From the IMG/VR virus record IMGVR_UViG_2737471861_000014, positions 1 through 32,305 of that record: 32,305 bases of DNA, one strand, 5' to 3'. Positions within the stretch are counted from its first letter, which is position 1. Each line of letters starts with the position of its first letter. Source of the stretch: a virus (taxonomy: Duplodnaviria > Heunggongvirae > Uroviricota > Caudoviricetes). Of this stretch, positions 1 to 19,625 are shown in pieces. The notes beneath the pieces were generated by a model. The model did not search any database. It saw only the letters and a program-made list of their open reading frames with translations, and was not told where the DNA came from. The position numbers and the translations under genes are program-made.

Positions 1-141
1 ATATTACGTGGGTAGGATCACGCAGGGGTCGGCCCATTTGAGCTTCAGATAGGAACGTTTGAATTCCTTTCACAAAATACATCACATACTGAACGTGAAC
101 ATTCCCACTTTGATCTTAAGGCCAAAAAGTATGCAGGACTA

Positions 142-1860
142 ATGATTTTTAGGGATAGCTTGAGAGTATTACCTTATGGTCGAGTAGATAATGATTTCTT
201 CCAGATAGAAGAAAGACGTTCATGGAATGCAGGGCGATATTATTGGTCTAATAGAAGGATTTTTGGTTATATTGGAATTACTCAATCCAGTAATAAAGAG
301 CTGAAAGATAAGTCGGGGAGAGAGGGATTCATAAGAAACCAGGCTGCAAGAGAACTGAAAACTATTATATCTAATTTGTTAACTGAACTTGCTGATAGAT
401 TTTTTGGTTCACGTTCTGATGACCGTAAAGAGCTTTTAGAACAAGTTAAGCGTGAAAAAGAGTTAAGAAAATCTGCTCAACAACAAGCTCGAAAATCAAC
501 ACAAAAAAGTTTTTCAGAAGCTTTGAAGAATCAGACACCAGTTCTTGATGCTTCCTTGGAGGCTGTTAAAAGGCTGAAAACTAAGCTTGATAAAACTGAT
601 GGTTCGTTAGATTTAAACTATCTTAAAATTATAGACAGTGATCTTACAAACTTAGATGCGTTGCGCAGTGAAATTAAAACGCCTATCAAACCTCCAAAAC
701 TTGGAATGTATGAAGAGAAATATAGAGACTACAGAGATAAATTTAATGAGTTCTCTGCGTATATTCTACAAATGAAGTTAGCAATTAATAAACTTGATTC
801 TGAATTAAATAAACTTGAGCCTTCATTGGCAGCGAAAAATCACCTTGAAAAAAATCAAGGTATTATTAATTCTAAACTAACTAAGTTTAATAACACGATA
901 GAGGAGAAGATACATTCTCTTTTAAAAAAATGGGCCGATGAAATAAAGGTTGATCGAAGTGATTATTATGCTAAAACTATATCAGTTGTTGATTCAATAG
1001 ATAATGATTCACAAATTGAAAATGTGTTTAATTTGCTCGATAGTTTATATGTTGAGTCAGTTGATACCCTAACTTTCAAATATCAATCAATAATAAAAGG
1101 TCTCGATAGATTATTTGAAGGTATAAACTTAGATTCAGCATTCTCATTATCTGAAGAAGAACGCTCATATTTTGAAGAAAAAGCTAAAAGTTTAAACGCG
1201 CTTGCACAGTTAGGTATTAGTGTTGAGATAATATCTCATGAACTTGAAGAAATGGATTCTATGGTAACCAGAGGACTAAACTCTCTTCCTACTTCTGTAA
1301 AAGAACACCCTGGTTTTTCATTGGCGTTAAATGCTCACAGATCGCTTACTCAACAAATACGTTTCTTATCACCTTTGAAAATATCAGGTTATCAATCCAG
1401 GCAGAGAATAACTGGAAAAAATATCATGGATTATGTCCTGAAGTTCTTTGGGGAGCGTTTCGAACGGCAACGAATAACTATTGAATTTAGTGAAGAGTTT
1501 AAGCAAATCGCAATAACAGATATACCATCAAGGATCTATCCTGTTTTTACTAATATTATCAACAATGCAATGTATTGGGTCAGTCTGTCAAATAATAGGC
1601 TCATAAAGATTGGTTTTGTGAATTCTTTGGTTATCATAGCAAATTCTGGTCCGGCAATTGATACCGATGATATCCCGCGACTATTTGAACTATTTTATAG
1701 CAAAAGAGCAAATGGACATGGGGTAGGTCTGTATCTATGTCGAGAAAACCTTGCTGTTGCACATCATAAAATATGGTATTCAGAACCTGATGAAGGCGAT
1801 AACTATTTAATAAAAGATGGCGCTAATTTTGTGATCCAGTTCAATGGAGTGGAGTTCTAA
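142..1860 (+). CDS. Histidine-kinase-like protein: coiled-coil-rich N-terminal region, HisKA-like H-box and HATPase_c (GHKL) ATPase domain; no obvious transmembrane segment
   Basis: ORF of 572 aa. ATG at 142 is preceded by AGGA; all three plus-strand frames have stops within the first 50 nt, so the gene starts inside the window. Motifs read from the translation: H-box-like ISHELEEMD, N-box-like FTNIINNAMYW, G1-like IANSGPAIDTDD, G2-like GHGVGLYLCRE. The N-terminal ~350 aa are K/E/L-rich. Confidence 0.6.
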   Translation: MIFRDSLRVLPYGRVDNDFFQIEERRSWNAGRYYWSNRRIFGYIGITQSSNKELKDKSGREGFIRNQAARELKTIISNLLTELADRFFGSRSDDRKELLEQVKREKELRKSAQQQARKSTQKSFSEALKNQTPVLDASLEAVKRLKTKLDKTDGSLDLNYLKIIDSDLTNLDALRSEIKTPIKPPKLGMYEEKYRDYRDKFNEFSAYILQMKLAINKLDSELNKLEPSLAAKNHLEKNQGIINSKLTKFNNTIEEKIHSLLKKWADEIKVDRSDYYAKTISVVDSIDNDSQIENVFNLLDSLYVESVDTLTFKYQSIIKGLDRLFEGINLDSAFSLSEEERSYFEEKAKSLNALAQLGISVEIISHELEEMDSMVTRGLNSLPTSVKEHPGFSLALNAHRSLTQQIRFLSPLKISGYQSRQRITGKNIMDYVLKFFGERFERQRITIEFSEEFKQIAITDIPSRIYPVFTNIINNAMYWVSLSNNRLIKIGFVNSLVIIANSGPAIDTDDIPRLFELFYSKRANGHGVGLYLCRENLAVAHHKIWYSEPDEGDNYLIKDGANFVIQFNGVEF

Positions 1861-3610
1861 TATGACAGTGGCAAATTATAATTCTCTTGTCCAGAAAACT
1901 TTCTGCGAAAATGCAATTCGTTCCGTTGTCATGATTGATGACGATTTTCTGACGTATTCTGAATCAATCAGGGCGTTGAATAACGAAGTTGATTTAGACT
2001 ACAACAAAATTGACTCATCTAAACGAGCCGCTACTCTTGAGAGCTTTTTTCAATCTAAAAATATGATTTGTGATGTTGACAATGGTTCTGTTAATTTCGA
2101 TGTGGATCGGATTAGGAAATCAGATCTTATTATTGTAGATTATCATCTTGATAATAATGCACCTGATAAAACACTTAAACTATTACAAGATTTGAAAGAC
2201 TCCGATCATTTAAATATGATTGTAATATATACTAGAGAGAATTTAGAAACGGTTTGGATGCAGATATCATCGACTCTCAAAGGTGCTCTGGATATCAACA
2301 GCTTGATCATTGACTACGATAATGAAGATGTCCAAAGTTATTGGGAAGACGTTGTATTACCGAACTTAAATGATAATGGTAATAAAGCTCTCACAAGAGA
2401 TGAAACAATAGCCTATATTAAAGACAGTAAGCCTTGTAGAAGAATTAAAAGATTAATACATGATGATGCTGTGTTGGAGGATCAAAAGGATAAAAACTTC
2501 ATTGCAAAAATGATTGCAGAATATGCTGTGTCTAGAAATGCAATTATTTCTAGCAACACATCTGGCAATGTCATTCGGGGTGATGAAAGCGGAGTAAAAT
2601 GGATTCAATGTGGTAATATCTTTGTCTCCCTATTTCATAAGGTTCAAGATGATCATGAAAACGATGGAGATAGGATTTGGCAAACTCTCAATGATTCTCT
2701 CATTGAATGGAAACCATCTTATTATCAGTTAATAAAATCTGAAATTCAGAATGCAATCGAAGCTGAGGCTTTATCTTTTGTAAATCATTTGGCTAACGAT
2801 CATTACGGTCAAGCTGCGTGGTTAAATGAGATATTAAAATCAGACTCGCCTGATATTAGATGTAGAAATATTGACTTTGTATTTGGTAATTTATCAGAAG
2901 AGCTTTATCAAAGACTTAAAAATAATAATACGCTGGATGAATTTATCAAAAGTGTTTTTGATAGCTATTCAAATGAATACGCTAACAGCGGAGTTGCTGC
3001 ATTGCTCCAATATTGCTCTTCAAAAATGGATCTGCCATCAAATAATGATACTTATCACGAAATGTATCATGCTTTAAATATGAATTTGTCTTCAAAGAAT
3101 TTTGAAGATGGTCATATTTCTACTGGCACTATTTTCTTTGATACAGAGTCGAACAAATGGTATTTATGTGTATCTGCGGCATGTGATTTGGTTCCTACTC
3201 AGGGTAACGACCCTCACCATGTAAGATTAAGTCCGCACAGGCTCATTAAAGTTCTGGAGCTTTTTAACGCCAGTCAGAGTAAAGCATTGCCATTTGCTGA
3301 ACATTCGAAATATATATATGTAATGCATAAAAATCAAAGAAAATATCTCTCTATTTTCGAAGGGGATAAAACGCTTCCTGTTGTTGATTATATGGTGGTG
3401 TTGAATCATGGAACAACAGTTGATGGCGAAGAAAAAAATATTATTTCTGCCGTGTTTTTAAGTAATATGGATGGCAACGTGCAAAATGTTCCTGTCCGAC
3501 TCAAACTTAAATCTCAACTGAGAACTGGTTATGCAGAAAGATATCAGGCTATAGCGTCTCAGTATAGCTCAAGGATTGGTGTGGATTATGTATCAATGAT
3601 GCTACCATAA
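1844..3610 (+). CDS. Receiver (REC)-like domain protein with a ~440-aa C-terminal domain of unknown function
   Basis: ORF of 588 aa whose start overlaps the stop of the upstream gene by 17 nt, suggesting translational coupling. REC-like motifs: acidic pair in RSVVMIDDD, putative phospho-acceptor Asp in DLIIVDYHLD, Thr in MIVIYTRE, then a Lys. No HTH or other known output domain recognised in the C-terminal part. Confidence 0.5.
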   Translation: MEWSSNMTVANYNSLVQKTFCENAIRSVVMIDDDFLTYSESIRALNNEVDLDYNKIDSSKRAATLESFFQSKNMICDVDNGSVNFDVDRIRKSDLIIVDYHLDNNAPDKTLKLLQDLKDSDHLNMIVIYTRENLETVWMQISSTLKGALDINSLIIDYDNEDVQSYWEDVVLPNLNDNGNKALTRDETIAYIKDSKPCRRIKRLIHDDAVLEDQKDKNFIAKMIAEYAVSRNAIISSNTSGNVIRGDESGVKWIQCGNIFVSLFHKVQDDHENDGDRIWQTLNDSLIEWKPSYYQLIKSEIQNAIEAEALSFVNHLANDHYGQAAWLNEILKSDSPDIRCRNIDFVFGNLSEELYQRLKNNNTLDEFIKSVFDSYSNEYANSGVAALLQYCSSKMDLPSNNDTYHEMYHALNMNLSSKNFEDGHISTGTIFFDTESNKWYLCVSAACDLVPTQGNDPHHVRLSPHRLIKVLELFNASQSKALPFAEHSKYIYVMHKNQRKYLSIFEGDKTLPVVDYMVVLNHGTTVDGEEKNIISAVFLSNMDGNVQNVPVRLKLKSQLRTGYAERYQAIASQYSSRIGVDYVSMMLP

Positions 3611-3623
3611 TTATTATATTTTA

Positions 3624-3660
3624 GGCGTGGTGATTTTTTTTCGCCATGCCTATTTTATAT
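3624..3660 (+). terminator. Putative intrinsic terminator between convergent genes
   Basis: Hairpin GGCGTGGTGA / T-rich loop / TCGCCATGCC (with G-U wobbles) followed by TATTTTATAT, immediately after the stop at 3610. Confidence 0.45.
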
Positions 3661-3681
3661 TTATCATCACAATGATGTTGT

Positions 3682-4098
3682 TTATTTTTGTTTAAGTCTT
3701 CTAAGCTTCATGCATTCTAATGAGAATAATAATAGAGTTGTGCTGTATATAAAGCCAGAGTTAGTTAATAACTTTAAATTTAATGCTTCAGGATTTTCAC
3801 TGAGAAAGTGAAAGGCATAAACTAAGTATACAGCTAAAGTAGCCGTTCCAATTGTTGGTCCAATATCGCCTTGATCATGAGGTTCAAGGTTTACATTGAA
3901 CTTGAAGATTAGCCATTCAAATCCCCAAGTAAAAAAAACAACTAATATCATGGCTGCGAATAATTTCGCGATCTTATCTGCTGATGGATTCATCAGAACA
4001 GATTGTTTCTGAAAAAATTCACAAAGTGAGAGTCCGAAAAAAATAAAAAAAAGTGGTCTGGAACTAAATTTTTCAAAAACTTTGAATAGGGTTTCCAT
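3682..4098 (-). CDS. Small hydrophobic (multi-pass membrane) protein, hypothetical
   Basis: ORF of 138 aa with several hydrophobic stretches (LFFIFFGLSL, AAMILVVFFTWGFEWLIF, GTATLAVYLVYAFHFL). AT-rich; lies between the cassette and the integrase. Confidence 0.45.
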   Translation of the reverse strand: METLFKVFEKFSSRPLFFIFFGLSLCEFFQKQSVLMNPSADKIAKLFAAMILVVFFTWGFEWLIFKFNVNLEPHDQGDIGPTIGTATLAVYLVYAFHFLSENPEALNLKLLTNSGFIYSTTLLLFSLECMKLRRLKQK

Positions 4099-4136
4099 TT
4101 TCTTTACCTTCAGGATTATATTAGCTATTCTGATAC

Positions 4137-5408
4137 TTAGGCTACCAGAGCATTTGATCTTTGAGCTTGAACGTAATCACTCCACCATTGCATCAAACTC
4201 TGTCGCTCTATCAGATATTCTGCACGATTGTATGCTGCGATAATTTCATCTTTTTTCGAGTGGGCAAGCGCTGCCTCAAGAACTTCAGCTCTGAATTTAC
4301 CAGACTCCTCTGCCGCTGTTCGTGCAATAGAACGCATACCGTGAGCTACAAGCTCGCCTCCGAACCCCATTCGGATGATAGCTGCGTTGGCTGTTTGTTC
4401 ATGCATATGATTAAGAGGCGCTTTTATGCTGGGGAAAACCCATTCTCTATGCCCACTTATTGATTTCATTAATTCAAGGATGCGCAAAGCTTCTTTACTC
4501 AAAGGAACTTTGTGAAGCTTTTTCATTTTCATGAAATCAGCAGGAATGTTCCAAATGCTGTTGGTTGTATCAATATCAGACCACCTTGCGCGAACGGCTT
4601 CACCCGGACGAACCCATGTCAACAATTGCCATTCAATTAGCATACGTGTTTCCAACCGGATTGACGCATTCGTCAAAGATTCCATAAACCTTGGCAATTC
4701 GCTTGGGGGAAGGGCAGGCATATTTTGCTTTTTTGGTTTACTGAATCTTTGACCAAGGTTGTCAGCCGGGTTGAACTCAATAAGTTCTTCAGTAGCTGCC
4801 CACCGGAAGATTTCATTCAGACGTGAAATGATACGGCGTAGAGTTTCCAATACGCCTCGTTGCTCAATAGGATCAAGGTGTTGTTTTAAGAGCTTAGGTC
4901 GGATCTCATTGATAGGGACATTACCCAGACCGGGAAAGACATTTCTCTCTAAGCTGCGCCAGATGTCTGCTGCATGGTCTTGTGAGATACCTGATGTCTT
5001 TACCTTCTCATCTAACCATTTCCGCGCTACGGCTTGGAGAGTGTGCTCAGTAGCACTCTTTAATGCCTTCGCCTTATCGTTGTTATGGATTTGGGGATCA
5101 ACACCATTTGCCAGAAAGGAGAGATATTCATCACGTAAGGCTCTGGCTCTTGCAAGGGTAAGGTGAGGATATGTCCCAAGGCTCATTTTGGTTCTTTTCT
5201 TGCTCACTGGTACTGCATACCTGAAATACCAATTTTTCTTGCCTCCTTTCGCCAAAGGAGCGATTCGTAGAATCAGACCATCACCGTCAAACAAGTTGAT
5301 TTCTTTATCGGCTGGCTTGGTGCTTTTGATTTCAGTGTCAGTGAGCTTCTTAGCGATTTTTGCCATTTTGGGACCCTCGGTTTTTGGACCCTTCTTAGTG
5401 GGTCCCAT
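4137..5408 (-). CDS. int: Tyrosine recombinase, P4/CP4-57 (IntA-like) integrase family
   Basis: ORF of 423 aa. The N-terminal LTDTEIK..KP motif and overall sequence resemble P4-type integrases. The true start may be the internal Met (MAKIAKKLTDTEIK, about nt 5366). Adjacent to the ssrA 3'-end repeat. Confidence 0.9.
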   Translation of the reverse strand: MGPTKKGPKTEGPKMAKIAKKLTDTEIKSTKPADKEINLFDGDGLILRIAPLAKGGKKNWYFRYAVPVSKKRTKMSLGTYPHLTLARARALRDEYLSFLANGVDPQIHNNDKAKALKSATEHTLQAVARKWLDEKVKTSGISQDHAADIWRSLERNVFPGLGNVPINEIRPKLLKQHLDPIEQRGVLETLRRIISRLNEIFRWAATEELIEFNPADNLGQRFSKPKKQNMPALPPSELPRFMESLTNASIRLETRMLIEWQLLTWVRPGEAVRARWSDIDTTNSIWNIPADFMKMKKLHKVPLSKEALRILELMKSISGHREWVFPSIKAPLNHMHEQTANAAIIRMGFGGELVAHGMRSIARTAAEESGKFRAEVLEAALAHSKKDEIIAAYNRAEYLIERQSLMQWWSDYVQAQRSNALVA

Positions 5409-5531
5409 TCAGGGTGCCATAACTCGTAGTTCTCAGCAATTCTCACTGGACGACAATAGACGTAAAAAAGCCCGCAGAGCTTGTGCTGTGTGGGCTTAGT
5501 AGACTTCATTGAACTTCAAACAACTAAAAAG

Positions 5532-5576
5532 TGGTGGAGCTGGCGGGAGTTGAACCCGCGTCCGAAATTCCTACAT
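5532..5576 (-). repeat. ssrA: 45-bp fragment identical to the 3' end of tmRNA gene ssrA (T-arm, acceptor stem and CCA): attachment-site repeat
   Basis: Reverse complement reads ATGTAGGAATTTCGGACGCGGGTTCAACTCCCGCCAGCTCCACCA, matching the E. coli ssrA 3' terminus as I recall it. Flanking sequence on the 5' side (5577 onward) is AT-rich and unrelated to tmRNA, so this is not a complete gene. Confidence 0.8.
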
Positions 5577-5768
5577 ACCATTTTTATTATAGTAAAAACA
5601 GTAGATTATGTTTGAAAACAATGTGTTAGTGTTATTTTGTATTTGCTCGTCTTACGCGTTTTTAATGCTCTGCCGCCAAAGTGCCGCCATTACATCAAGC
5701 ATCTAGAATAAAATTAGTTAATAAATTATAATTAATATGCTAATTGTTCTTGCATTCATAAGTGGGAC

Positions 5769-7505
5769 GTGATGAAAGAAAAAAAATTCGTTAGTGAGCT
5801 TTTCCTTGAAAATGGGCAGTTTATTTTAGTCGGTTTGACAGGTCGAACTGGTTCTGGTTGCACAACAACAGCTAATATTCTTGAAAACGAAAAAACAGTC
5901 TTCCCTGATGTAAGTAAATTACAGGGGTTTTACAAGGGATTGGATGTCCATCGTTATAATATAGTTAAAAAATTCGCAGAAAATCACTGGGAAAATTTTT
6001 ACTCAATTAAGGTGAGTGACCTAATCTCAGCGTATCTTCTGATGTTAACAGTTGAGGAAGCTTCTGAATTCATTCTATCATCTAATAAATTTATCAGTAA
6101 AGAGCATTTAGATATTGTATTAACTTTTGGTGTATTCTCAGATAATCTCATTTTGACAAGATTTAAAAATGTAATTGAGAATTTGCTTGATCATAATAGT
6201 GAATTGAAGTTTGATGAAAAAACGATTAATAAATTTATATCAATTTTGAAGTTAGTTAGAAAATTTACTAAAGAATTCAAAGCTGAACTAAATGAGATAA
6301 ACTCAAATTTATATGTTTCAGCCTATCAGTTAGCAGGTAAGTCAATTAGACGTCGTGGGCGTATTGAAGTCGATTTTGAAGATAAAGAGTTTATGCCTAA
6401 ATCTGTTTTTCATTTGCCGGAAACTATTAATAGGGTTATTAAATTAATAAGAAAAAGCAAAAGAGATAACGCATTAATTGTCATAGATGCTATTAGAAAT
6501 CCATATGAGGCAAAATTTTTTAAGGATAGATATTCTGCATTTCATTTAATGTCAATAAATGCCCCAGATGAACATCGAACAAACTATTTGCGGAAACTAC
6601 ATAAGTTTTCAGAAAAGCAGATAGAGGAAATAGATTCTGTAGAGTCAGGTAAAGGTGATAACTCTTACAAACATCTCACCAATCCAAATGTAACTAAATG
6701 TATTGAACTATCAGATATACACATTTTTAACCCAAAAAATGAATTTGATAATGACAATATTTTAAAAGCACAATTAGCGTGGTACATCGCACTGATGAAG
6801 CATCCTGGTCTGATAACACCTACTGCAATGGAAAGGGTTATGCAAGTTGCGTATACGGTAAAATTAAACTCTGGCTGTATATCTAGACAGGTGGGAGCTG
6901 TAGTAACTGATGGTGATAATTCAATAAAATCAGTTGGTTGGAATGATGTTGCCAACGGTCAGATTCCTTGCTCTATGAGATCTCTAGATGGCCTAATGAA
7001 CGATTTTGATGAAAAAACGTACAGTCATTATGAGAGAAATAATAGTTCTTTCAGAATTAAAGCTAATGAGAAACTCTTAAATTTTAGGGCGATAGATAAA
7101 ACTGGTGATATTTATAGAGGCAGGAACTTATCTTATTGTTTTAAAGATATACATAATGATCTTGATAAAGAGAAAAAAGGTAATCAAGTTCATACACGTG
7201 CATTACATGCTGAGGAAAACGCATTTTTACAACTTGCAAAATATGGTGGTATTGGCGTTCTGGGGGGGAAGTTGTATACAACTGCCAGTCCCTGTGAGTT
7301 GTGTGCGAAAAAAGCTTATCAGTTAGGTATATCTGAAATTGTATTTATTGATCCCTACCCAGGTATAGCTCAAGACCATATTATTAATATAGGTAGTAAG
7401 CCACCAAAGTTAATACAATTTAGAGGCGCAATTGGGAAGTCATATCACCGACTTTATGAGCAAATTATCCCGATAAAAGATGAGTTAGAATATCTCCTTG
7501 AGTAG
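5769..7505 (+). CDS. P-loop kinase-like N-terminal domain fused to a zinc-dependent cytidine/dCMP-deaminase-fold C-terminal domain; dCTP-deaminase-type antiphage defence protein (candidate)
   Basis: ORF of 578 aa. Walker-A-like GLTGRTGSGCTT near the N-terminus. C-terminal deaminase zinc motifs HAEENA and SPCELCAKK. AT-rich; located between the att repeat and the prophage integrase. Start is GTG 5769 or ATG 5772. Confidence 0.65.
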   Translation: MMKEKKFVSELFLENGQFILVGLTGRTGSGCTTTANILENEKTVFPDVSKLQGFYKGLDVHRYNIVKKFAENHWENFYSIKVSDLISAYLLMLTVEEASEFILSSNKFISKEHLDIVLTFGVFSDNLILTRFKNVIENLLDHNSELKFDEKTINKFISILKLVRKFTKEFKAELNEINSNLYVSAYQLAGKSIRRRGRIEVDFEDKEFMPKSVFHLPETINRVIKLIRKSKRDNALIVIDAIRNPYEAKFFKDRYSAFHLMSINAPDEHRTNYLRKLHKFSEKQIEEIDSVESGKGDNSYKHLTNPNVTKCIELSDIHIFNPKNEFDNDNILKAQLAWYIALMKHPGLITPTAMERVMQVAYTVKLNSGCISRQVGAVVTDGDNSIKSVGWNDVANGQIPCSMRSLDGLMNDFDEKTYSHYERNNSSFRIKANEKLLNFRAIDKTGDIYRGRNLSYCFKDIHNDLDKEKKGNQVHTRALHAEENAFLQLAKYGGIGVLGGKLYTTASPCELCAKKAYQLGISEIVFIDPYPGIAQDHIINIGSKPPKLIQFRGAIGKSYHRLYEQIIPIKDELEYLLE

Positions 7506-7536
7506 AAATATTATACTCATCCTTCCTGAGGTAAGC

Positions 7537-7570
7537 TTCAAGATGATCAATAAATATTGATCATCTTGAA
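7537..7570. repeat. Perfect 16-bp inverted repeat with 2-nt spacer
   Basis: TTCAAGATGATCAATA-AA-TATTGATCATCTTGAA, 32 bp after the deaminase stop. No clear U-run follows on either strand, so it may be a protein-binding site rather than a terminator. Confidence 0.6.
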
Positions 7571-7885
7571 AGTTAATTGCAGAGTCAAACTAGTAGTCAG
7601 ACTGAAGCTTCGATAAAAAATGTTTTTGTTTTTTTCATTTTCTAATGACTGTTTTTTATTGGTTTCTTTTTAATGTTGCAATGCTATGCTTTTCTACTAT
7701 TTTTGAATGTGGCATCTTTGATGTTTTTATACAACAAAGATGAGGGCTTATAGGTTTTTTTGTGATGTAAAAATTATCTTATTCTATAAATAAAACCTAA
7801 ACTCAGTCTGAAGAGTTAAATGAGAATGGATAACCTGCTGAATATTATATTTGTAAATAGTTTGAGTTTGTTTTCATAAGTTACT

Positions 7886-8902
7886 CTATCTTAAGTTGCA
7901 TAAAGGGTTTTTAGTTACCGCATCTTCAAGGTGATCGGGCGAAAAGTGGGCGTAAATCATCGTCATTTTTATATCGGCATGGCCCAGAATATCGCGCAGC
8001 ACCAGTATGTTTCCGCCATTCATCATAAAATGGCTGGCGAATGTATGACGTAGCACGTGAGTGCATTGGCCCTCTGGCAGCTCGATGCCAGCTCGCTTTA
8101 CTGCTCGTTCAAAGGCTTTTCTGCACGGGGTGAATAGCTTCCCTCTGTTCTTGGGGAGTTCGTCATACAGATCTTGAGATATCGGCACGGTGCGGTTTTT
8201 CTTACCCTTCGTCTTGGTATAAGTGATGCGGTATTTAGATAACTGATGGCCCTGCAGGTTTTCAGCTTCACTCCAGCGTGCGCCGGTGGCCAGGCATATT
8301 TTTGCAATCAAAAGCAGACTGGGGTTTTGAGAATCAGCGCAGGCATCTAGCAGACGTTTAATTTCTTCCGAGGTCAGGAACGCCAGTTCCCCCTCAGCGA
8401 TTTTAAATGTTGGCAGCCCGGCGAGAGGATTTGGTGCTGACCAGTGGCCTAGTTTTTTCAATGTGCCGAAAACCGATGATAGGTTACGTTGCTCAAGATT
8501 CACCGTGCGTGGTTTTACTGGCGACATTAGTGTGCCGTCTTCGTTACGAACGTCACCTTTTAACCGTGCTTCGCGGTATTTCGTAAAGTCACCGGCTGTC
8601 AGTTCTGAGGCGATGGGGTCGCCTAGACCATTACAGATAATTCTAAGTTTCGCCATGAGGCGCTTGGGGTCTGCGAGTGTCTGACCATACAGGGAATACC
8701 AAAGCTCAATTAATTCTGATAGGCGTCGCCGATCATCCTTTTCACCCAACCACGGTTTTTTATTCACTTCTTCCATTGTGAAGCTTTCAAAAGCAATGGC
8801 TTCGCCTTTCGTAGCAAATTGCTTACGCACGCGCTTACCATTGCGTCCATTGGGATAGCACTCACACAACCATTTTCCGTTCGGCTGTTTTCTGATGGTC
8901 AT
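7886..8902 (-). CDS. int: Prophage integrase, P2/186 tyrosine recombinase family
   Basis: ORF of 338 aa, the same length class as P2/186 Int. The C-terminal region contains HVLRHTFASHF and LGHADIKMTMIYAH, typical of the catalytic R/H/Y region. Sits immediately downstream of the CI-like gene. Confidence 0.9.
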   Translation of the reverse strand: MTIRKQPNGKWLCECYPNGRNGKRVRKQFATKGEAIAFESFTMEEVNKKPWLGEKDDRRRLSELIELWYSLYGQTLADPKRLMAKLRIICNGLGDPIASELTAGDFTKYREARLKGDVRNEDGTLMSPVKPRTVNLEQRNLSSVFGTLKKLGHWSAPNPLAGLPTFKIAEGELAFLTSEEIKRLLDACADSQNPSLLLIAKICLATGARWSEAENLQGHQLSKYRITYTKTKGKKNRTVPISQDLYDELPKNRGKLFTPCRKAFERAVKRAGIELPEGQCTHVLRHTFASHFMMNGGNILVLRDILGHADIKMTMIYAHFSPDHLEDAVTKNPLCNLR

Positions 8903-8903
8903 A

Positions 8904-9536
8904 TCAAAGGCTCTTAATGATTTTCAGTGCGCGGCCTACTACCTCAATGTCATCTAGGCCACACTCAAACGATGAATCATCCTGATGCACTACTAATTTG
9001 TTTCCCGGAAGTCGAGTCAATTTAACAATGCTTTTTATCCCGTCAATATCGACTAACCACATACCATTTACTGGTGGTGTTTGGTTGCGATCTATTAAAT
9101 AAGAATCACCAGAAGTAGTCACCAGCAGTAGGTTGCTTGAGTCTGAGGGGAGTATGCTGCTATCAATGATTGCTTTTCCAGCATCGACCAATAAACCACC
9201 GTTGAGAGTCGCCTTGTCAATTTCAGGAGATACTAGTTCAGAAAGAGGTACAACCTTGCTGGAGTTCACGGAATTGATATTTTTTTTAGGTTCAATGTTT
9301 GGACCTGGCTCCCCCTGTCCGGTGGTTAGCCACAGTAAAGAAACTCCTGTTTCCAAGGCGCACTGAATCACCCACTCTGCAGGAAAACTATCTCTTAAGT
9401 ATCTGTTTGCCATGGTGCTTTTTGATGCGCCTAAGTGATCGCAAAGTTGCTGTCTGGACTTGAAATCATAGGCTGCCATTAGTCTATGGATAGCCTCTCT
9501 TCCCCCTGTATTCTCTCCAACCTTTACCTGTATCAT
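8904..9536 (-). CDS. cI: CI-type immunity repressor (186-like)
   Basis: ORF of 210 aa directly upstream of int and divergent from the apl/cII operon. N-terminal HTH-like region. Position and size fit the 186 CI family. Confidence 0.75.
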   Translation of the reverse strand: MIQVKVGENTGGREAIHRLMAAYDFKSRQQLCDHLGASKSTMANRYLRDSFPAEWVIQCALETGVSLLWLTTGQGEPGPNIEPKKNINSVNSSKVVPLSELVSPEIDKATLNGGLLVDAGKAIIDSSILPSDSSNLLLVTTSGDSYLIDRNQTPPVNGMWLVDIDGIKSIVKLTRLPGNKLVVHQDDSSFECGLDDIEVVGRALKIIKSL

Positions 9537-9553
9537 TTTTTAATCCTATTGAC

Positions 9554-9600
9554 GTATCAAATATTGGATCGTAGTATCTCGATGTATCAAATATTGAATC
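9554..9600. promoter_or_regulatory. Putative repressor operator pair in the lysis-lysogeny switch region
   Basis: Two 17-bp direct repeats, GTATCAAATATTGGATC (9554-9570) and GTATCAAATATTGAATC (9584-9600), each with internal near-dyad symmetry around AATATT, in the divergent intergenic region between the CI-like and Apl-like genes. Confidence 0.4.
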
Positions 9601-9655
9601 AAGTAAAACGAGATAAAACGACGTAAACCAAACCTTAATCGGGAGATACTGCACT

Positions 9656-9898
9656 ATGAGCACTGATATTTCAATTCGTGTACCAAAAGAGATGGCTACG
9701 CCTGCAGAGTTCGCGGAATGGGAAGGTATCTCCCGCGGCTCTGTGTATCAAAAAATTCATCATGGTCAGCTTGCTAAATACATGGTCAAGAAAGAAAAAA
9801 ACAAAGGCCGCGTAAGCCTGCGTTATTTAATGTACAAAACCGATCAGGTCCGTGAATCCCTCGGTCATTCCAACTTCCGCGTCATTGTTGGTAAGTAA
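9656..9898 (+). CDS. apl: Apl/Cox-like small regulator/excisionase (first gene of the lytic operon)
   Basis: ORF of 80 aa divergent from CI. Position is equivalent to 186 apl / P2 cox. Basic small protein. Confidence 0.55.
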   Translation: MSTDISIRVPKEMATPAEFAEWEGISRGSVYQKIHHGQLAKYMVKKEKNKGRVSLRYLMYKTDQVRESLGHSNFRVIVGK

Positions 9899-11481: not shown

Positions 11482-12335
11482 GCACCATCCTGAAATGGGC
11501 GGGAAATAAAACCGCCATTATGTCCGAACTGAAAAAACACCTTCCTGCTGGCCCGCGACTGGTTGAACCTTTCGCGGGTTCCTGTGCTGTGATGATGGAG
11601 ACGGATTACCCCAGCTATCTTGTTGCGGATATTAATCCTGATTTAATCAACCTCTATAAAAAGGTTGCTGCTGATTGTGAGGCATTTATATCTCGTGCCA
11701 GAGCTTTATTTGAGGAAGCAAACAGGGAGGTGGCTTATTACAACATAAGGCAGGAGTTTAATTACTCCACTGAAATTACTGATTTCATGAAAGCGGTATA
11801 TTTTCTGTATCTCAATCGTCATGGTTACCGTGGGTTATGTCGCTATAACAAGAGCGGGTATTTCAACATTCCCTACGGTAATTATAAAAATCCGTATTTC
11901 CCTGAAAAAGAAATTCGCGCATTTGCAGAGAAAGCCCAGCGGGCAACGTTTATCTGCGCCAGCTTTGATGAAACGCTGGCGATGTTGAAGGCGGGGGATG
12001 TGGTGTATTGCGATCCGCCGTATGACGGCACGTTTTCCGGTTATCACACTGACGGCTTCACTGAAGATGACCAGTATCACCTGGCATCCGTTCTTGAACA
12101 TCGGTCATCAGAAGGACATCCGGTCATTGTTTCTAACAGTGACACATCCCTGATCCGTTCGCTGTATCGCAATTTTACTCACCACTACATCAAGGCAAAA
12201 CGCAGCATCGGCGTAGCAGCTGGTGAGAGTAAATCTGCAACAGAAATCATCGCTGTTTCTGGGGCGCGCTGCTGGGTGGGATTTGATCCTTCGCGTGGCG
12301 TGGATAGTTCTGCCGTGTACGGAGTGCGTGCATGA
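11478..12335 (+). CDS. dam: DNA N6-adenine methyltransferase (Dam-like, D12 class)
   Basis: N-terminus [11 protein letters not shown] and catalytic DPPY motif ([10 protein letters not shown]). ATG at 11478 with GGAGG RBS, overlapping the upstream stop. Confidence 0.85.
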
Positions 12336-14746
12336 GCCATGCTGATATGAACAACTGCAGCGGCTTTAACGAGGCCGCCGCAGCATTCTCATGGGACAGC
12401 CCGAAAAAGGCTATTAACCCTTATCTGGACCCGGCAGAAGTTGCGCCGGTTTCTGCGCTTTCAAACCTGATCACTCTGTACGCTGCCGATAACGAGCAGG
12501 AACAACTGCGCCGCGAGGCACTGAGTGATCAGGTCTGGGAGCGTTATTTCTTTAATGAATCCCGTGATCCTGTCCAGCGCGAAATGGAGCAGGATAAGCT
12601 CATTAGCCGGGCAAAGCTGGCGCATGAGCAGCAGCGTTTTAATCCGGATATGGTCATTCTGGCGGACGTCAACGCCCAGCCTTCCCATATCAGCAAGCCG
12701 CTGATGCAACGTATTGAATACTTCAGCAGCCTGGGCAGGCCAAAGGCTTATTCCCGCTATTTGCGTGAGACGATTAAGCCATGTCTGGAACGACTGGAGC
12801 ATGTACGCGAGAGTCAGCTATCCACTTCTTTTCGCTTTATGGCAAGCCATGAAGGGCTGGACGGCCTGCTGATCCTGCCTGAAATGAGTCAGGATCATGT
12901 GAAACGCCTGTCCACCCTGGTAGCTGCGCATATGAGCATGTGCCTTGATGCAGCTTGTGGCGATTTGTATGCCACCGATGACGTTAAGCCAGAAGAAATC
13001 CGCAAGACATGGGAAAAGGTGGCGGCGGAAACCCTGCGTCTGGATGTCATCCCACCTGCGTTTGAGCAACTCCGTCGGAAAAGAAACCGCCGTAAACCCG
13101 TGCCCTATGAACTCATACCGGGTTCGCTGGCGCGTATGTTGTGCGGCGACTGGTGGTATCGGAAATTATGGAAGATGCGTTGCGAATGGCGGGAAGAGCA
13201 GTTGCGCGCTGTTTGCCTGGTCAGCAAAAAAGCATCTCCTTATGTCAGCTATGAAGCCGTGATGCATAAACGTGAGCAGCGCCGTAAGTCGCTGGAGTTT
13301 TTCCGTTCTCATGAACTGGTGAACGAAGACGGCGACACGCTGGACATGGAGGATGTGGTAAACGCCAGCAGCAGCAACCCTGTGCATCGCCGCAATGAGA
13401 TGATGGCCTGTGTTAAAGGTCTGGAGCTTATCGCGGAAATGCGCGGTGACTGCGCCGTTTTCTACACTATCACCTGTCCGTCGCGTTTCCATTCCACGCT
13501 AAATAACGGCAGACCAAACCCGACCTGGACAAACGCGACGGTAAGACAAAGCAGCGATTATCTGGTCGGCATGTTTGCTGCATTTCGTAAGGCGATGCAC
13601 AAAGCCGGGTTGCGCTGGTATGGCGTGCGGGTGGCTGAGCCGCATCATGACGGCACAGTTCACTGGCACCTGTTGTGTTTCATGCGCAAAAAAGACCGCC
13701 GTGCCATCACTGCATTACTGCGTAAGTTTGCCACCCGTGAAGACCGCGAGGAGCTGGGCAATAACACTGGGCCGCGCTTTAAGTCTGAGTTGATTAACCC
13801 GCGCAAAGGAACGCCGACAAGCTACATCGCGAAATATATCAGTAAGAACATTGACGGTCGTGGTCTGGCTGGCGAGATCAGCAAGGAAACGGGTAAATCT
13901 CTGCGTGATAACGCTGAATACGTGAATGCCTGGGCGTCTCTGCATCGTGTTCAGCAATTCCGCTTCTTTGGTATTCCGGGGCGTCAGGCTTACCGTGAAC
14001 TTCGCTTGCTGGCTGGTCAGGCGGCAAGGCAACAGGGTGACAAAAAAGTAGGTGCGCCGGTACTGGATAACCCGCGTCTTGATGCCATTCTGGCTGCTGC
14101 TGATGCTGGTTGTTTTGCCACCTACATCATGAAGCAGGGCGGCGTACTGGTTCCCCGTAAATATCACCTCATCAGAACCGCTTATGAAATCAACGAAGAG
14201 CCGACCGCCTATGGCGATCACGGCATTCGTATTTATGGCATCTGGTCACCCATTGCAGAGGGCAAGATCTGCACTCATGCAGTGAAGTGGAAAATGGTTC
14301 GTAAAGCCGTTGACGTTCAGGAGGCGGCAGCCGACCAGGGCGCTTGCGCCCCTTGGACTCGTGGCAATAACTGTCCCCTTGCTGAAAATTTGAACCAACA
14401 AGGGAAAGACAAATCAGCTGATGGGGATACCAGAACGGATATCACCCGCATGGATGACAAGGAGTTGCACGATTACCTGCACAGTATGAGCAAAAAAGAG
14501 CGCCGGGAACTGGCAGCAAAATTACGCATGGTTAAACCGAAACGGCGTAAAGACTACAAACAGCGAATTACAGAGTATCAGCGTCAGCAGCTCGTCTATG
14601 AACTGAAGTCCAGAGGATTTGATGGCAGCGAGAAAGAGGTCAATTTGCTCCTTCGCGGCGGCAGTATTCCGTCAGGAGCAGGCCTGCGTATCTTCTATCG
14701 GCACCAGCGTTTGCAGGAAGATGATAAGTGGCGAAACCTGTATTAA
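12332..14746 (+). CDS. A: Replication initiation protein A (P2 gpA-family rolling-circle initiator)
   Basis: ORF of 804 aa with [13 protein letters not shown] and [12 protein letters not shown] motifs characteristic of the P2 A family. Positioned after the early genes. Confidence 0.85.
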
Positions 14747-15644: not shown

Positions 15645-16742
15645 TTGCCGAGAAAGATCAGGTTAAGGGGATGTATTGTGGCTGAGAACGGACCGATAGA
15701 AGAATTAGCAAAGATAGTATCATCGAAGATTTTTGAGCGCTTTAAATGGAGCATATCAGGGCCGTGTGATCAGGACTTTGGATGTATTGACGAAGAAAAT
15801 CATAAACCACTCGAAAAAAAGCAGGCTCATACACACCCTGTCGATGTGGTTTTTAGCTATAAAGACCCTTATTTAAATAAAACTATTTTATTGAATACTG
15901 ACCTAAAAAGTTACTCTAAGGGTTCTATTAATCCTGACATGATAGAAAAAGCGCTGACATCCCTAGGGTATACAATTTCCTGTGCTCAATATAGTCCGGA
16001 GTGGAGAGAGAAATATAATATATGCGTTGGGGATAGTGAGGTTAGAGGGTTATTGTTTGTTTATAATCATGATAACGATTTTGAGCATAACTTTTATGAT
16101 TTCTTCGATCCTCCCAAACCTGCAGGAAGAAAAAGAAAGCCGAAGGCAGTTAAATTAGATAATATAAAAGTGTCTGATGGGCAACAAATACATATAATTG
16201 AGCCTAAGTCGATTAGCTATATGTTATCTATAATCGCAGATATGAATGAATTAATCAGAGATAATCAATTCCCGAGAGATGAGTATGGTTTTTATTACCC
16301 TCAACTTACATATCATAAGGTAATTGTCACCGATGATTATTTACCTGCAACGATAGAGTCTTTGACTGCTCCATTTTTAATTATTAAACATGATGCAGTT
16401 TACTCGTATGATCGCGAGCTACAAAGAGAAGTTGAAGTTTATCCTGCAGGGTATGTTGTATATTATAATCGTCCGGGCTCCACAGATATGGAGTTTTATT
16501 ATCTCTTTGATCTTTTAACTAACTACCAGATTCTGAATGGAAAAAACAACATAAGAATACGTATCGCGACAAAAGATCGGAATGATTCAATAAGATCGCA
16601 TTTTAAACGGGCACTTCAGAAGTATGCTTTTGATTGGAATTATGATGATAGTGCAAAGGAAAAACTACTTTCTATGGATATTTATTTAGTTCCTACAGTT
16701 AAAGAGTTTTATAGTACTGAATCAACATCTTGGGATTATTGA
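15645..16742 (+). CDS. Hypothetical protein, gene 1 of an AT-rich three-gene cargo cassette
   Basis: ORF of 365 aa. Start is TTG 15645 or, more likely, GTG 15678 (AAGGGG RBS 7 nt upstream). Possible PD-(D/E)xK-like spacing (HPVDVVF ... NTDLK) near the N-terminus, a weak motif-level guess. No recognisable phage structural or replication homology. Confidence 0.55.
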   Translation: MPRKIRLRGCIVAENGPIEELAKIVSSKIFERFKWSISGPCDQDFGCIDEENHKPLEKKQAHTHPVDVVFSYKDPYLNKTILLNTDLKSYSKGSINPDMIEKALTSLGYTISCAQYSPEWREKYNICVGDSEVRGLLFVYNHDNDFEHNFYDFFDPPKPAGRKRKPKAVKLDNIKVSDGQQIHIIEPKSISYMLSIIADMNELIRDNQFPRDEYGFYYPQLTYHKVIVTDDYLPATIESLTAPFLIIKHDAVYSYDRELQREVEVYPAGYVVYYNRPGSTDMEFYYLFDLLTNYQILNGKNNIRIRIATKDRNDSIRSHFKRALQKYAFDWNYDDSAKEKLLSMDIYLVPTVKEFYSTESTSWDY

Positions 16743-16743
16743 T

Positions 16744-17868
16744 ATGAGCAATATTTATAGTGTGACGGATAAGGTTTTATGTGATGCTCTTAACCAGTCA
16801 CAAGTAACTCAAAATGAGATGAGAGAGCTTTATCTTTCAAGAGGTATAATTATTTCAAAAAACACCGATAGAAAATTATTAGCTAAAAACTTCTCAAAGT
16901 TCACTCATGATTACTATGATCATCAGAAAATTGCAGAGATATTAGGAAGTGAGCCTCGGAGGGAGCGTTCTACTTCAAGATTAGTATCTAATATGCCTGA
17001 AAAAACAATTTTATTAAAAGCGGCGGATTCGCTAAAAAAAGAGCTAACAGACCAAAAAGACCTCTGCCATATAGTTGCTGATAAAAGTGGCATGATAAAT
17101 ATTCATATAACTTATATGTCAACAAATTTTTCAAAAAGTGATTTCAAACAAGTCGTTAAAAAGCAAGCTGTCATAGAGGTAGAGCCAACAGAAGCTGGTT
17201 ATGTGATTCGCCGTCCAGATAATGAGCAAACTGAGGTTTATGAGAATCAGTTACTTGCTATCGTTGAAAGATTATCAAAGGAAAGAGCGATTGAGGAAGG
17301 AAAACCAATTTCGGACGCTACTCTCGATATCCAAGAAATAAGTCTAGAAAACATTGATTCCCCTCAGTCCAGAACTGATTTCTTTACGAAATTAATAAAT
17401 GGGCTTGAAGGTTATGAACTCGATGATGTAACAGATGCTTATGTTTATCACCCAAAACCAGAAGAGATTGAAGAGGAAGACGGCGAAACAGATTTAGGAG
17501 TACATGTTAGTAAGGCATCGTTGAAAGGGGAAGGGGTGCTCAAATCTGAAGAAATCAACTCACTTTATGAGCGTGGCTTTTATATATGTAAAATTAAATG
17601 GCGAGTTAAAGAGAAAGGTGCGGATCCAAATATTTTTGAGTTTGAAGCGCAATTTAACGACGCTCAAAATTTTAAGGGGTTTTCATATATAGCTAAAGGT
17701 ATTAAAAAATACAAAGGGGGTGGCGAGTATAATAAGTCAACAGTCCAGTTGAAAGATAGTCAGAAGTTATTTTTTAGTCGTATGATTGAAAAGGCAGCCC
17801 GTTCCATTATAATTGAACTAAATAAACAGGCTCAGGGGAAGAAAGATGGAAAGTCTGATCAGAGTTAA
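16744..17868 (+). CDS. Hypothetical protein, gene 2 of the three-gene cargo cassette
   Basis: ORF of 374 aa starting 1 nt after the gene 1 stop. Contains an acidic stretch (EEIEEEDGETD). No recognisable domain. Confidence 0.55.
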   Translation: MSNIYSVTDKVLCDALNQSQVTQNEMRELYLSRGIIISKNTDRKLLAKNFSKFTHDYYDHQKIAEILGSEPRRERSTSRLVSNMPEKTILLKAADSLKKELTDQKDLCHIVADKSGMINIHITYMSTNFSKSDFKQVVKKQAVIEVEPTEAGYVIRRPDNEQTEVYENQLLAIVERLSKERAIEEGKPISDATLDIQEISLENIDSPQSRTDFFTKLINGLEGYELDDVTDAYVYHPKPEEIEEEDGETDLGVHVSKASLKGEGVLKSEEINSLYERGFYICKIKWRVKEKGADPNIFEFEAQFNDAQNFKGFSYIAKGIKKYKGGGEYNKSTVQLKDSQKLFFSRMIEKAARSIIIELNKQAQGKKDGKSDQS

Positions 17869-18547
17869 ATGGAATAGATTGAAGTCTAATCTTACATTAA
17901 GTGAGATTGCTTTTTATATAAAGAGTAACAAATACTCTGAAGAACTTGGCTATGGTTATTCTGACTTTGAAGTTTCATCTGACGTACTATCAGCTACGTA
18001 TACTGAAGCTAAGTTGAATAAACAGACTTCAGTTGATCCTTTGGGTAACGAAAATGAACAAGAGTTCATTACTTATGAGTCAATTCAGTTCTCTATATCT
18101 AAACTCATAGGTAGGTTATATTTATTATCAGTTTACAATCCACCAAAATCAATAAAGGCTTTGACAGAGCGACTTAGTGCGGATTCAGGTTATAAAATAG
18201 GGTTTGGCATCGTTGATATTAAACTGTCTGAGTATTTGGATTCGCTGCATAAAAAATATGATTTGGAACTTGTTAGTATCAAGAAGGTTAAGGTTAGTAA
18301 TTTGATAGTTAATGATAACTCTAAGGCAACCGTAGAGGTTACATCTAAGAAAAATGCATTTGATGATGTGAAGGATATTATTGGGGATAAAGCATATTCT
18401 CTTGATAAGGTCAGGGCGGCAGGATATGTTCTAGGACATCGTTGTGAATTTGAGATATCGAAGAATGGTTCTGTCTGTGCTAACGAGGGTATGGTTAAAT
18501 ATTTAACTGAGACAATAGTTTCTCATATTCTTGAAAGGGAAATTTAA
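17846..18547 (+). CDS. Hypothetical protein, gene 3 of the three-gene cargo cassette
   Basis: ORF of 233 aa whose start overlaps the end of gene 2 by 23 nt, preceded by a GGGGAAGAAAG RBS. No recognisable domain. Confidence 0.55.
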   Translation: MESLIRVKWNRLKSNLTLSEIAFYIKSNKYSEELGYGYSDFEVSSDVLSATYTEAKLNKQTSVDPLGNENEQEFITYESIQFSISKLIGRLYLLSVYNPPKSIKALTERLSADSGYKIGFGIVDIKLSEYLDSLHKKYDLELVSIKKVKVSNLIVNDNSKATVEVTSKKNAFDDVKDIIGDKAYSLDKVRAAGYVLGHRCEFEISKNGSVCANEGMVKYLTETIVSHILEREI

Positions 18548-18590: not shown

Positions 18591-19625
18591 TCAAAGAGTT
18601 AGTTCATATTTTTCAAAACGCATAATTTTCTCCCCTAACCATTCATTGAGCCCCTCGAGTTGTTTTTGTAGAGGCATCAGTTCGTTACGGACAAAGACGC
18701 AACTGGCCTTCTCCACATCCCCAAACCCGCCAACATTACTTGGCATAATCCCCATCATCTGTGGTGGCACGCGGTGCGCAGCCATCATGTCATCACGGCT
18801 CACGTTCTTGATATTCAGAAACTCATCCTTCGCTGCGACTTCTGACAACGGGATAATCTGAAGTCCGTCCTTTTTGCCGTTAGGCGAGTACATAAACAGA
18901 TTGCGGAAGTTGCCAGGGCCTTTGGCGCTTTTCATCGCGTTGCGGAGGTTGTTCACATCCTCCTGGTTCTGCGCGGCATCGGTCATATACATGATGAAGC
19001 CTGCATGGCTGCCGTTGATGTAATACTTACGGCGGAACAGCGTGGCGGACTCGTTGAGCAGGGCTGACGGAATGGCAGAAAGATAACCGGGCAGGCCGTA
19101 GATCTCCTGATTAATATCCGGTTCCATCAGATGAAAAATGCTGCCTTTCGTGAACTGATACGGCTGGGTTGTCATACCGTATTGCACAAACCAGTAGGTA
19201 TCCAGGTCTAATCCGCGTCGGGTGTATTTTGCCAGCGCAGGTTCAAGGGCGATCACTTCACCGAAGCGGTTCGTGCGTTTCTCCAGATAGGCATTGCCAA
19301 ATACCAGATAGTCCTGCACAAAACGCGAAAAAGCCTGCTGGCTGAGCAGAGGATGAGGGATATAGGTACTGGTCAGAATGTTACACTTTACTGCAATCGG
19401 GGAACTGTGATGCACGGCAGCGCGGAAGGTGCGCGCCAGTCCGTCAAAGCTGACGGGAGGCTCATACCAGCGGTCCATCTGTACGCATTCCACATAGTCC
19501 AGCAGTTCACGGCGGTCCAGAACAGGAACGGGATCGCCGAAGCTGAATGCTTCGGCTGTAGTTTGACTTTTAAGCTGGATCTGTTTCGTCGCCGCAGCTC
19601 GGTTCTTCTTACTCTTTCCCATCAA
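18591..19625 (-). CDS. Q: Portal protein (P2 gpQ family)
   Basis: ORF of 344 aa (P2 Q is the same length), adjacent and co-oriented with the terminase ATPase gene. Confidence 0.85.
   Translation of the reverse strand: MMGKSKKNRAAATKQIQLKSQTTAEAFSFGDPVPVLDRRELLDYVECVQMDRWYEPPVSFDGLARTFRAAVHHSSPIAVKCNILTSTYIPHPLLSQQAFSRFVQDYLVFGNAYLEKRTNRFGEVIALEPALAKYTRRGLDLDTYWFVQYGMTTQPYQFTKGSIFHLMEPDINQEIYGLPGYLSAIPSALLNESATLFRRKYYINGSHAGFIMYMTDAAQNQEDVNNLRNAMKSAKGPGNFRNLFMYSPNGKKDGLQIIPLSEVAAKDEFLNIKNVSRDDMMAAHRVPPQMMGIMPSNVGGFGDVEKASCVFVRNELMPLQKQLEGLNEWLGEKIMRFEKYELTL

Follow-up and report, generated by a model that had tools for sequence, protein, structure and literature searches.

A 45-bp ssrA fragment beside a P4-type integrase is the predicted att core of a Fels-2/SopEPhi-like prophage

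The window analysed here is the whole 32,305-bp contig JWZJ01000011.1 of the short-read draft assembly GCA_000819015.1, and repeats lie at both of its ends. The left end is just past an IS3 in relatives (C2, 503025). The right end falls in a tail-fibre-assembly/invertase cassette that is common to other prophages. A 200-aa tail-fibre-assembly protein is identical in unrelated Mu-like prophages, which likewise lie within ~7 kb of smpB. From left to right the window holds three genes followed by a P4-type integrase gene, a 45-nt piece of the tmRNA gene (ssrA), an AT-rich segment with a dCTP deaminase gene, and a P2/186-like prophage that begins with an integrase gene of its own (Table 1).

Table 1. 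Features along the 32,305-bp window, with the evidence for each
Feature	Position	Strand	Evidence or remark
Remainder of the putative remnant island: ATPase, receiver protein, hypothetical	1-4136		Pfam, E. coli matches; IS3 just left of position 1 in relatives
Histidine-kinase-like ATPase	142-1860	+	Pfam
Receiver-domain protein	1844-3610	+	Pfam
138-aa hypothetical	3682-4098	-	ORF list
P4-type (IntA/CP4-57-like) tyrosine integrase, 409 aa with the likely start	4137-5366	-	Pfam, NCBIfam, IntA alignment; longest ORF reaches 5408
Native ssrA downstream sequence, integrase-proximal arm of the P4-type island	5464-5531	-	Prophage-free genomes, K-12 spacer
Displaced 3'-terminal 45 nt of ssrA (tmRNA); predicted att core at the int-proximal prophage end	5532-5576	-	45/45 identity, SEN8 attP core, partial Rfam tmRNA match
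Int-proximal attP arm	5577-5690		87% identical to the SEN8 attP arm directly adjoining SEN8 int
Predicted cargo slot between attP arm and int	5691-7904	+	Lacking in SEN8; two other genes in C2
Predicted anti-phage dCTP deaminase	5772-7505 (GTG at 5769)	+	PADLOC, NCBIfam, Pfam
P2/186-type phage integrase, 338 aa	7886-8902	-	Pfam Int_N and Phage_integrase; SEN8 similarity
Rest of the P2/186-like prophage	8904-32305		ORF list, colinear annotated prophages, PADLOC
CI repressor	8904-9536	-	ORF list, colinearity
Replication protein A (end of early genes)	12332-14746		ORF list, colinearity
3HP defence cassette	15645-18547	+	PADLOC Hp1-3
Portal and terminase	18591-21388	-	ORF list, colinearity

An Arm-DNA-bind_3/DUF4102 N-terminus, central and catalytic domains, and the R..HxxR..Y residues were taken to define an integrase of the P4 type. 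The left-hand integrase has the Pfam domains Arm-DNA-bind_3, Phage_int_M and Phage_integrase, all three above their cut-offs, and it matches NCBIfam PRK09692 with a score of 440.6 against a cut-off of 434. It shares 48% amino acid identity over 408 aa with IntA of E. coli K-12, and the alignment shows the R..HxxR..Y residues within VRPGEA, HGMRSIA and AYNR. Both the domain set and the position of the gene, directly 3' of a tDNA target and in the same orientation, are those of the IntA/CP4-57-like class. The ATG at 5366 lines up with Met1 of K-12 IntA and corresponds to the 1230-nt RefSeq gene call in C2 and 503025, suggesting that it is the likely start rather than 5408.

The three genes to the left of this integrase include an overlapping pair on the plus strand. 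The first member encodes 572 aa with Pfam HEF_HK and HATPase_c domains. The second encodes 588 aa with an N-terminal Response_reg_2 receiver and ~400 C-terminal residues that lack annotation. Neither PADLOC nor NCBIfam gave a family match for the pair. By analogy, the two proteins are possibly an uncharacterised two-component conflict/defence module resembling Detocs. A P4-like phage satellite was also considered for this region and rejected; positions 1-4136 lack P4-satellite core genes and hold solely the ATPase, the receiver protein and the 138-aa hypothetical.

At least 80% of window 1-5600 is covered in 560 complete E. coli genomes, and the best matches listed among these genomes have 99.8-99.9% identity and run across the ssrA junction to 5600. 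In C2 and 503025 the four-gene block is bounded by an IS3 and lies beside a truncated pseudogene and the gab operon. To the left of the P4-type integrase, a further ssrA-derived repeat was sought with a 45-mer and a 19-mer (up to 3 mismatches), a variant resembling K-12 psaA, and blastn-short. No third copy was found in the window, C2, 503025 or a relative with a longer island, and no distal repeat of the P4-integrase island was found in relatives out to gabP and the gab operon or beyond. Because it has four genes, an IS3 end and no distal repeat, the left element is best read as a decayed, IS3-bounded remnant that has lost its distal att site. The P4-type integrase would then be part of this immobile remnant island and not of the prophage.

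Positions 5532-5576, read on the minus strand, were aligned with the 3' end of ssrA from E. coli C2 and K-12 and are identical at 45/45 nucleotides; the match to intact ssrA breaks off at nucleotide 46. The minus-strand reading is TGTAGGAATTTCGGACGCGGGTTCAACTCCCGCCAGCTCCACCA with one more matching base in front. Minus is also the strand of ssrA in colinear relatives, and the piece stands at one end of a prophage as a displaced 3' portion of the target gene, in the orientation of that gene. ARAGORN, and Rfam at gathering thresholds, detected no tmRNA or tRNA anywhere in the window because the fragment is too short. A permissive Rfam scan matched the tmRNA model with high posterior probability solely over its last ~45 positions. 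Allowing up to 3 mismatches, a 45-nt pattern that overlaps the fragment closely (5531-5575) occurs once in the window, with matches in 0/100 shuffles, and the 19-nt core (5532-5550) also occurs once, with matches in 1/100 shuffles.

On the side of the P4-type integrase, positions 5464-5531 have a 100% identical counterpart that directly adjoins the intact gene where the prophage is absent, and they are homologous to the ssrA-intA spacer of K-12. A terminator scan and folding placed an intrinsic terminator, with a stem-loop and a T-run, at ~5464-5497. Both ends of the Rfam model for IsrM, a Salmonella island sRNA (Rfam), match the last ~10 nt of ssrA and the terminator region (5464-5541, minus strand). 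The match scores 53 bits, where the gathering score is 376, and the 253-nt middle of the model is missing from the window. This pattern suggests that IsrM in Salmonella may lie where the 3' end of ssrA meets a P4-type island, in a junction homologous to this one.

The right-hand element has the gene order of a P2/186-like (Peduoviridae) phage. From 7886 it reads int, CI, apl/cox-like, cII and fil through to A, followed by a cargo cassette. Beyond this cargo, Q/P are divergent from O-N-M-L, and lysis, baseplate and tail-fibre genes follow. Capsid, lysis and tail genes lie downstream of the portal and terminase genes until the contig end interrupts the tail-fibre cassette; the portion from tail sheath to ogr is beyond the contig. 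In ORF sizes and order the prophage is colinear with annotated prophages of C2, VG888-46E9 and 01G17CRGN001, and it agrees with the Pfam labels given to the genes of this contig. Among complete E. coli genomes its best full-length match is 97%, and none of them holds an identical prophage. The int-cI region has 85% nucleotide identity with Salmonella phage SEN8 (Felsduovirus).

These observations largely bear out the preliminary description. It had identified 5532-5576 as the tmRNA 3' end with the remainder missing, as the 45/45 identity, the break at nucleotide 46 and the lack of a tmRNA in the window confirm. Next to it, an AT-rich flank with a deaminase gene and then a P2/186-like prophage had been recognised, and both are seen here in the GC content of 0.31-0.35, the dCTP deaminase, int with CI, and the P2 gene order. 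The ORF list also places both integrase ORFs (4137-5408 and 7886-8902) on the minus strand, as had been stated. The first of them is a real ORF of the P4 type, as claimed, but its start is probably too far upstream, judging from IntA Met1 and the RefSeq calls.

Matches to SEN8, SopEPhi and Yersinia phage MLG42 all begin at window position 5532, so these phage records carry the 45-bp ssrA core. The decisive result of the analysis is the alignment with attP of free phage SEN8. In this attP, the arm that flanks intact ssrA in the C2 lysogen is followed by the 45-bp core and then by the arm at 5577-5690, with int directly after. attP is thereby rebuilt from both junctions, and a tyrosine integrase (7886-8902) lies inside the element. 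The three-part structure is that expected of Campbell-type integration, and the 45 bp are predicted to be the att core of a Fels-2/SopEPhi-like prophage occupying 5577-32305. The core is repeated perfectly, and the sequence therefore shows neither where the crossover took place nor which copy is 'original'.

The int-proximal attP arm is AT-rich and contains a TGCCGCCA doublet at 5671-5678 and 5682-5689, with 11-bp spacing. The doublet is kept in SEN8, and the int-side arm of C2 has a one-mismatch variant. In C2 the arm on the ogr side, adjoining intact ssrA, contains a terminator and a similar TGCCGCCA doublet (C2 49361-49380). The doublets are taken to be candidate arm-type Int sites.

Compared with SEN8, 2.2 kb (5691-7904) are inserted between the attP arm and int. 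Over 5501-7500 the GC content of this flank is 0.31-0.35, against ~0.55 in the prophage. The insertion carries the dCTP deaminase gene, which is matched by the PADLOC dCTPase model (E=1.3e-145) and by the NCBIfam antiphage_deaminase equivalog NF041025 (425.5 bits against a cut-off of 400), and which contains the zinc-binding deaminase domain dCMP_cyt_deam_1 (Pfam). The protein falls in the anti-phage dCTP deaminase family, and a defence function is predicted. A 34-nt palindrome at 7537-7570, directly downstream of the stop codon and inside the slot, is probably the terminator of the gene. A minor defence hotspot has been described between att and int of P2-like phages (PMC13586616). Because the flanking arm (5577-5690) and int belong to the phage, and because the contents of the slot vary (none in SEN8, other genes in C2), the dCTP deaminase is interpreted as phage cargo in this att-int defence slot and not as a separate element.

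Other intervals of the prophage also carry cargo. Between A and the portal gene Q lie three AT-rich ORFs of 365, 374 and 233 aa, which PADLOC identifies as Hp1, Hp2 and Hp3 of the '3HP' system. This interval is the main defence hotspot of P2 (PMC9122126, PMC13586616). In relatives the interval from ogr to attP is variable too, with a reverse-transcriptase-domain gene in C2 (48404-49319) and a 160-aa hypothetical in VG888-46E9 (43381-43863). This interval, which is beyond the window, is possibly another small cargo slot, across attP from the att-int slot.

Complete E. coli genomes were compared at the ssrA locus. A synthetic prophage-free junction was made from window 5000-5576 and the remainder of ssrA. 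In the matches listed it is found in one piece at 100% identity over 1006 bp, and at least 80% of it is covered in 965 complete E. coli genomes, with the P4-type integrase against intact ssrA. The prophage-free genome 503025 reads gab, IS3, the four genes (kinase-like, receiver, hypothetical, P4-type int), intact ssrA, smpB. The occupied junction (5400-5760) is at least 80% covered in 60 complete E. coli genomes. Intact ssrA-smpB stands just past the ogr end in all three prophage-bearing relatives read (C2, VG888-46E9, 01G17CRGN001), and in C2 and VG888-46E9 it is ~35.5 kb from the 45-bp fragment.

VG888-46E9 has the same prophage with its deaminase gene (99.7% identity over 5532-9700) and no P4-type integrase beside it. 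Its 45-bp fragment adjoins the ypjA flank; in K-12 this flank comes after psaA. Since this prophage sits in a different flank, the prophage would be the mobile unit and the sequence left of 5532 its host context. K-12 itself has CP4-57 alone at ssrA. Taken together, the four states of the locus indicate that the prophage is the mobile unit and that the 45 bp are its core. The IS3-truncated remnant is found beside intact ssrA in prophage-free genomes and so, most simply, predates the insertion of the prophage.

In C2 and VG888-46E9, complete genomes colinear with the window, the intact target gene is present at the other end, which the window does not reach. Since the window is the whole contig, the half of the argument that concerns intact ssrA and the ogr side rests on these relatives. 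We infer that the intact ssrA of the source genome is on another contig of the draft.

We put the probability at roughly 0.93 that the locus is a Fels-2/SopEPhi-like P2/186-type prophage in ssrA, with an older P4-integrase remnant displaced to its int end. The order of events that we infer is as follows. Before the insertion, the DNA downstream of ssrA would have been the older island, with the IntA-like integrase and three genes, truncated by IS3 and deprived of its distal att. A Fels-2/SopEPhi-like phage (P2/186-type, Peduoviridae) would then have entered the ssrA 3' end by Campbell-type site-specific recombination. Its attP would have contained the last 45 bp of ssrA, and the phage integrase would have recombined attP with the matching 45 bp at the end of the gene. 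A complete ssrA would thus be regenerated at the ogr end, outside the contig, with a terminator now supplied by the phage. After the CCA of that intact ssrA, the expected arm is AATAAATCAAGGGGTTACGTGAAAGCGTAGCCC TTTTTT ... followed by sequence like TGGCGGCAAAATGGCGGCAG, and then ogr/D on the opposite strand. The other 45-bp copy, still attached to the terminator and downstream DNA that ssrA had before, would have been shifted ~35 kb to the int end, and would be 5532-5576. The older island was already downstream of ssrA in this scheme, so the P4-type integrase now abuts only 45 bp of the gene.

The preliminary description had proposed tandem elements at ssrA, each duplicating the att core. Two integrase-bearing elements do lie side by side, but the whole locus holds two copies of the core (intact ssrA and the 45-bp fragment). 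Both are explained by the P2-like prophage alone, so there has not been one duplication of the core per element. Repeats derived from ssrA had been expected at the element ends; relatives have intact ssrA at the ogr end of the prophage, but no repeat distal to the P4-integrase island was found in the relatives searched. A strict tandem array, in which both elements are complete and each has its own ssrA-derived repeat, is therefore hard to reconcile with the island, a block of four genes bounded by an IS3 that has a truncated pseudogene beside it. The 19-nt core (up to 3 mismatches) and blastn-short gave the single known copy in the window, and the relatives have no distal repeat out to gabP or beyond. 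Both integrase ORFs are nevertheless full length with complete domain sets, tandem arrays are common at tDNAs (PMC4383910), and CP4-57 of K-12, which has a related integrase, keeps its distal 14-nt ssrA repeat psaA. We consider such an array very improbable. Even less probable is that the deaminase segment (5577-7885) is a third, small integrative element separating the P4-type island from the P2-like prophage. The low GC content of the segment (0.31-0.35 against ~0.55) and the different genes of C2 at that position would suit a separate element, and the preliminary description had named the flank apart from the prophage. The comparison with SEN8 instead places the deaminase between attP arm and int: 5577-5690 is the phage attP arm, directly adjoining int in SEN8, so the segment is inside the phage. 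There is no att repeat between the deaminase and the P2-type int, the deaminase is with the prophage in VG888-46E9 too, where the flank is a different one, and an att-int defence slot is a described feature of P2-like phages (PMC13586616).

Two further explanations, each with next to no chance of being correct, would make the fragment a product of faulty assembly or of gene loss. The source is a short-read draft with repeats at both contig ends, so a chimeric contig, in which 5532-5576 really runs on into intact ssrA, is conceivable. However, the best complete-genome matches listed to 1-5600 cross the junction at 99.8-99.9% identity, the junction is exactly as SEN8 attP predicts, and at least 80% of 5400-5760 is covered in 60 complete genomes. 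An assembly artefact would have counted against the preliminary description, and the recurrence of the junction in those 60 E. coli genomes speaks against one. That just 45 nt of the gene are within the window could likewise mean that a deletion or a non-specific insertion had disrupted ssrA, so that the strain would lack tmRNA. Such an event does not account for a breakpoint that falls, to the nucleotide, where the phage attP core ends, and the relatives read with a P2-like prophage at the junction, or with the same prophage, all keep intact ssrA at the other end.

The P4-type integrase is full length and 100% conserved beside ssrA in many genomes, and its own distal att site is lost. The terminal ~15-20 nt of ssrA are present in both copies that flank the prophage, so this integrase could in principle evict or mobilise its neighbour, or capture elements. 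It is very unlikely that it still acts on these nucleotides; if it did, it would be an orphan integrase working in trans on the att sites of a neighbouring prophage.

With the insertion of a Fels-2/SopEPhi-like prophage as the preferred reading, an orphan 45-bp tmRNA fragment beside an integrase would be the int-side mark of an ssrA-targeting P2-like prophage and not a broken ssrA or an assembly error. The value of the result is mainly for annotation. It sets the prophage boundary at 5532/5577, and this boundary assigns the dCTP deaminase to a mobile phage genome, where it occupies the minor defence slot between att and int.

An order of intact tDNA, island, displaced 3' fragment and further island was reportedly described by Williams in 2003, and the Islander arrays share this order with the present locus. 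Under the strict Islander criterion each member of a tandem array carries an integrase and a tDNA fragment of its own. The prophage has both; the P4-integrase remnant has an integrase and lacks a distal ssrA fragment in the window and in the relatives. A tDNA and its displaced fragment mark the ends of islands, tandem arrays occur, and the tmRNA gene is the most enriched island target (PMC4383910). The tandem arrangement at ssrA is already known and common, and no new mechanism or family is implied.

CP4-57 of K-12 has, like the left element, a P4-type integrase that directly follows ssrA on the same strand, behind a homologous terminator. It differs in being ~22 kb long with the distal 14-nt psaA, whereas the element here has four genes, an IS3 end and no distal repeat. 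The core of CP4-57 is ~15 nt, shorter than the 45-bp phage core. P4-type integrase remnants also occur beside Stx prophages at ssrA, which is a listed insertion site of Stx phages (PMC8065619). The remnant next to phi467 (LN997803) is 100% identical and that of CP-1639 (AJ304858) is 92% identical; each lies at one end of its prophage record, and the CP-1639 record carries the annotation 'remnant integrative element'. In both cases, unlike here, the prophage alongside is of the lambdoid Stx type. At phi467 (LN997803 32650-34231), ~25 nt derived from ssrA, TGG(TGG)AGCTGGCGGGAGTTGAACCCG, lie by the integrase flank, against 45 nt here. This difference suggests that different elements use different core lengths at the ssrA 3' end, with that of phi467 apparently shorter.

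The closest known relatives are the phages of the Fels-2/SopEPhi/SEN8 group (Peduoviridae, Felsduovirus). Integration into ssrA is reported for SopEPhi and Fels-2 (PMC3448106). The group hosts are Salmonella and the host here is E. coli. SEN8 has no att-int cargo, in contrast to the 2.2-kb slot with a dCTP deaminase, and a 3HP cassette further distinguishes the A-Q slot of the present prophage from the group. Shared with the group are the 45-bp ssrA core, both attP arms, the int-cI-apl-cII-fil early region, and the P2 gene order throughout.
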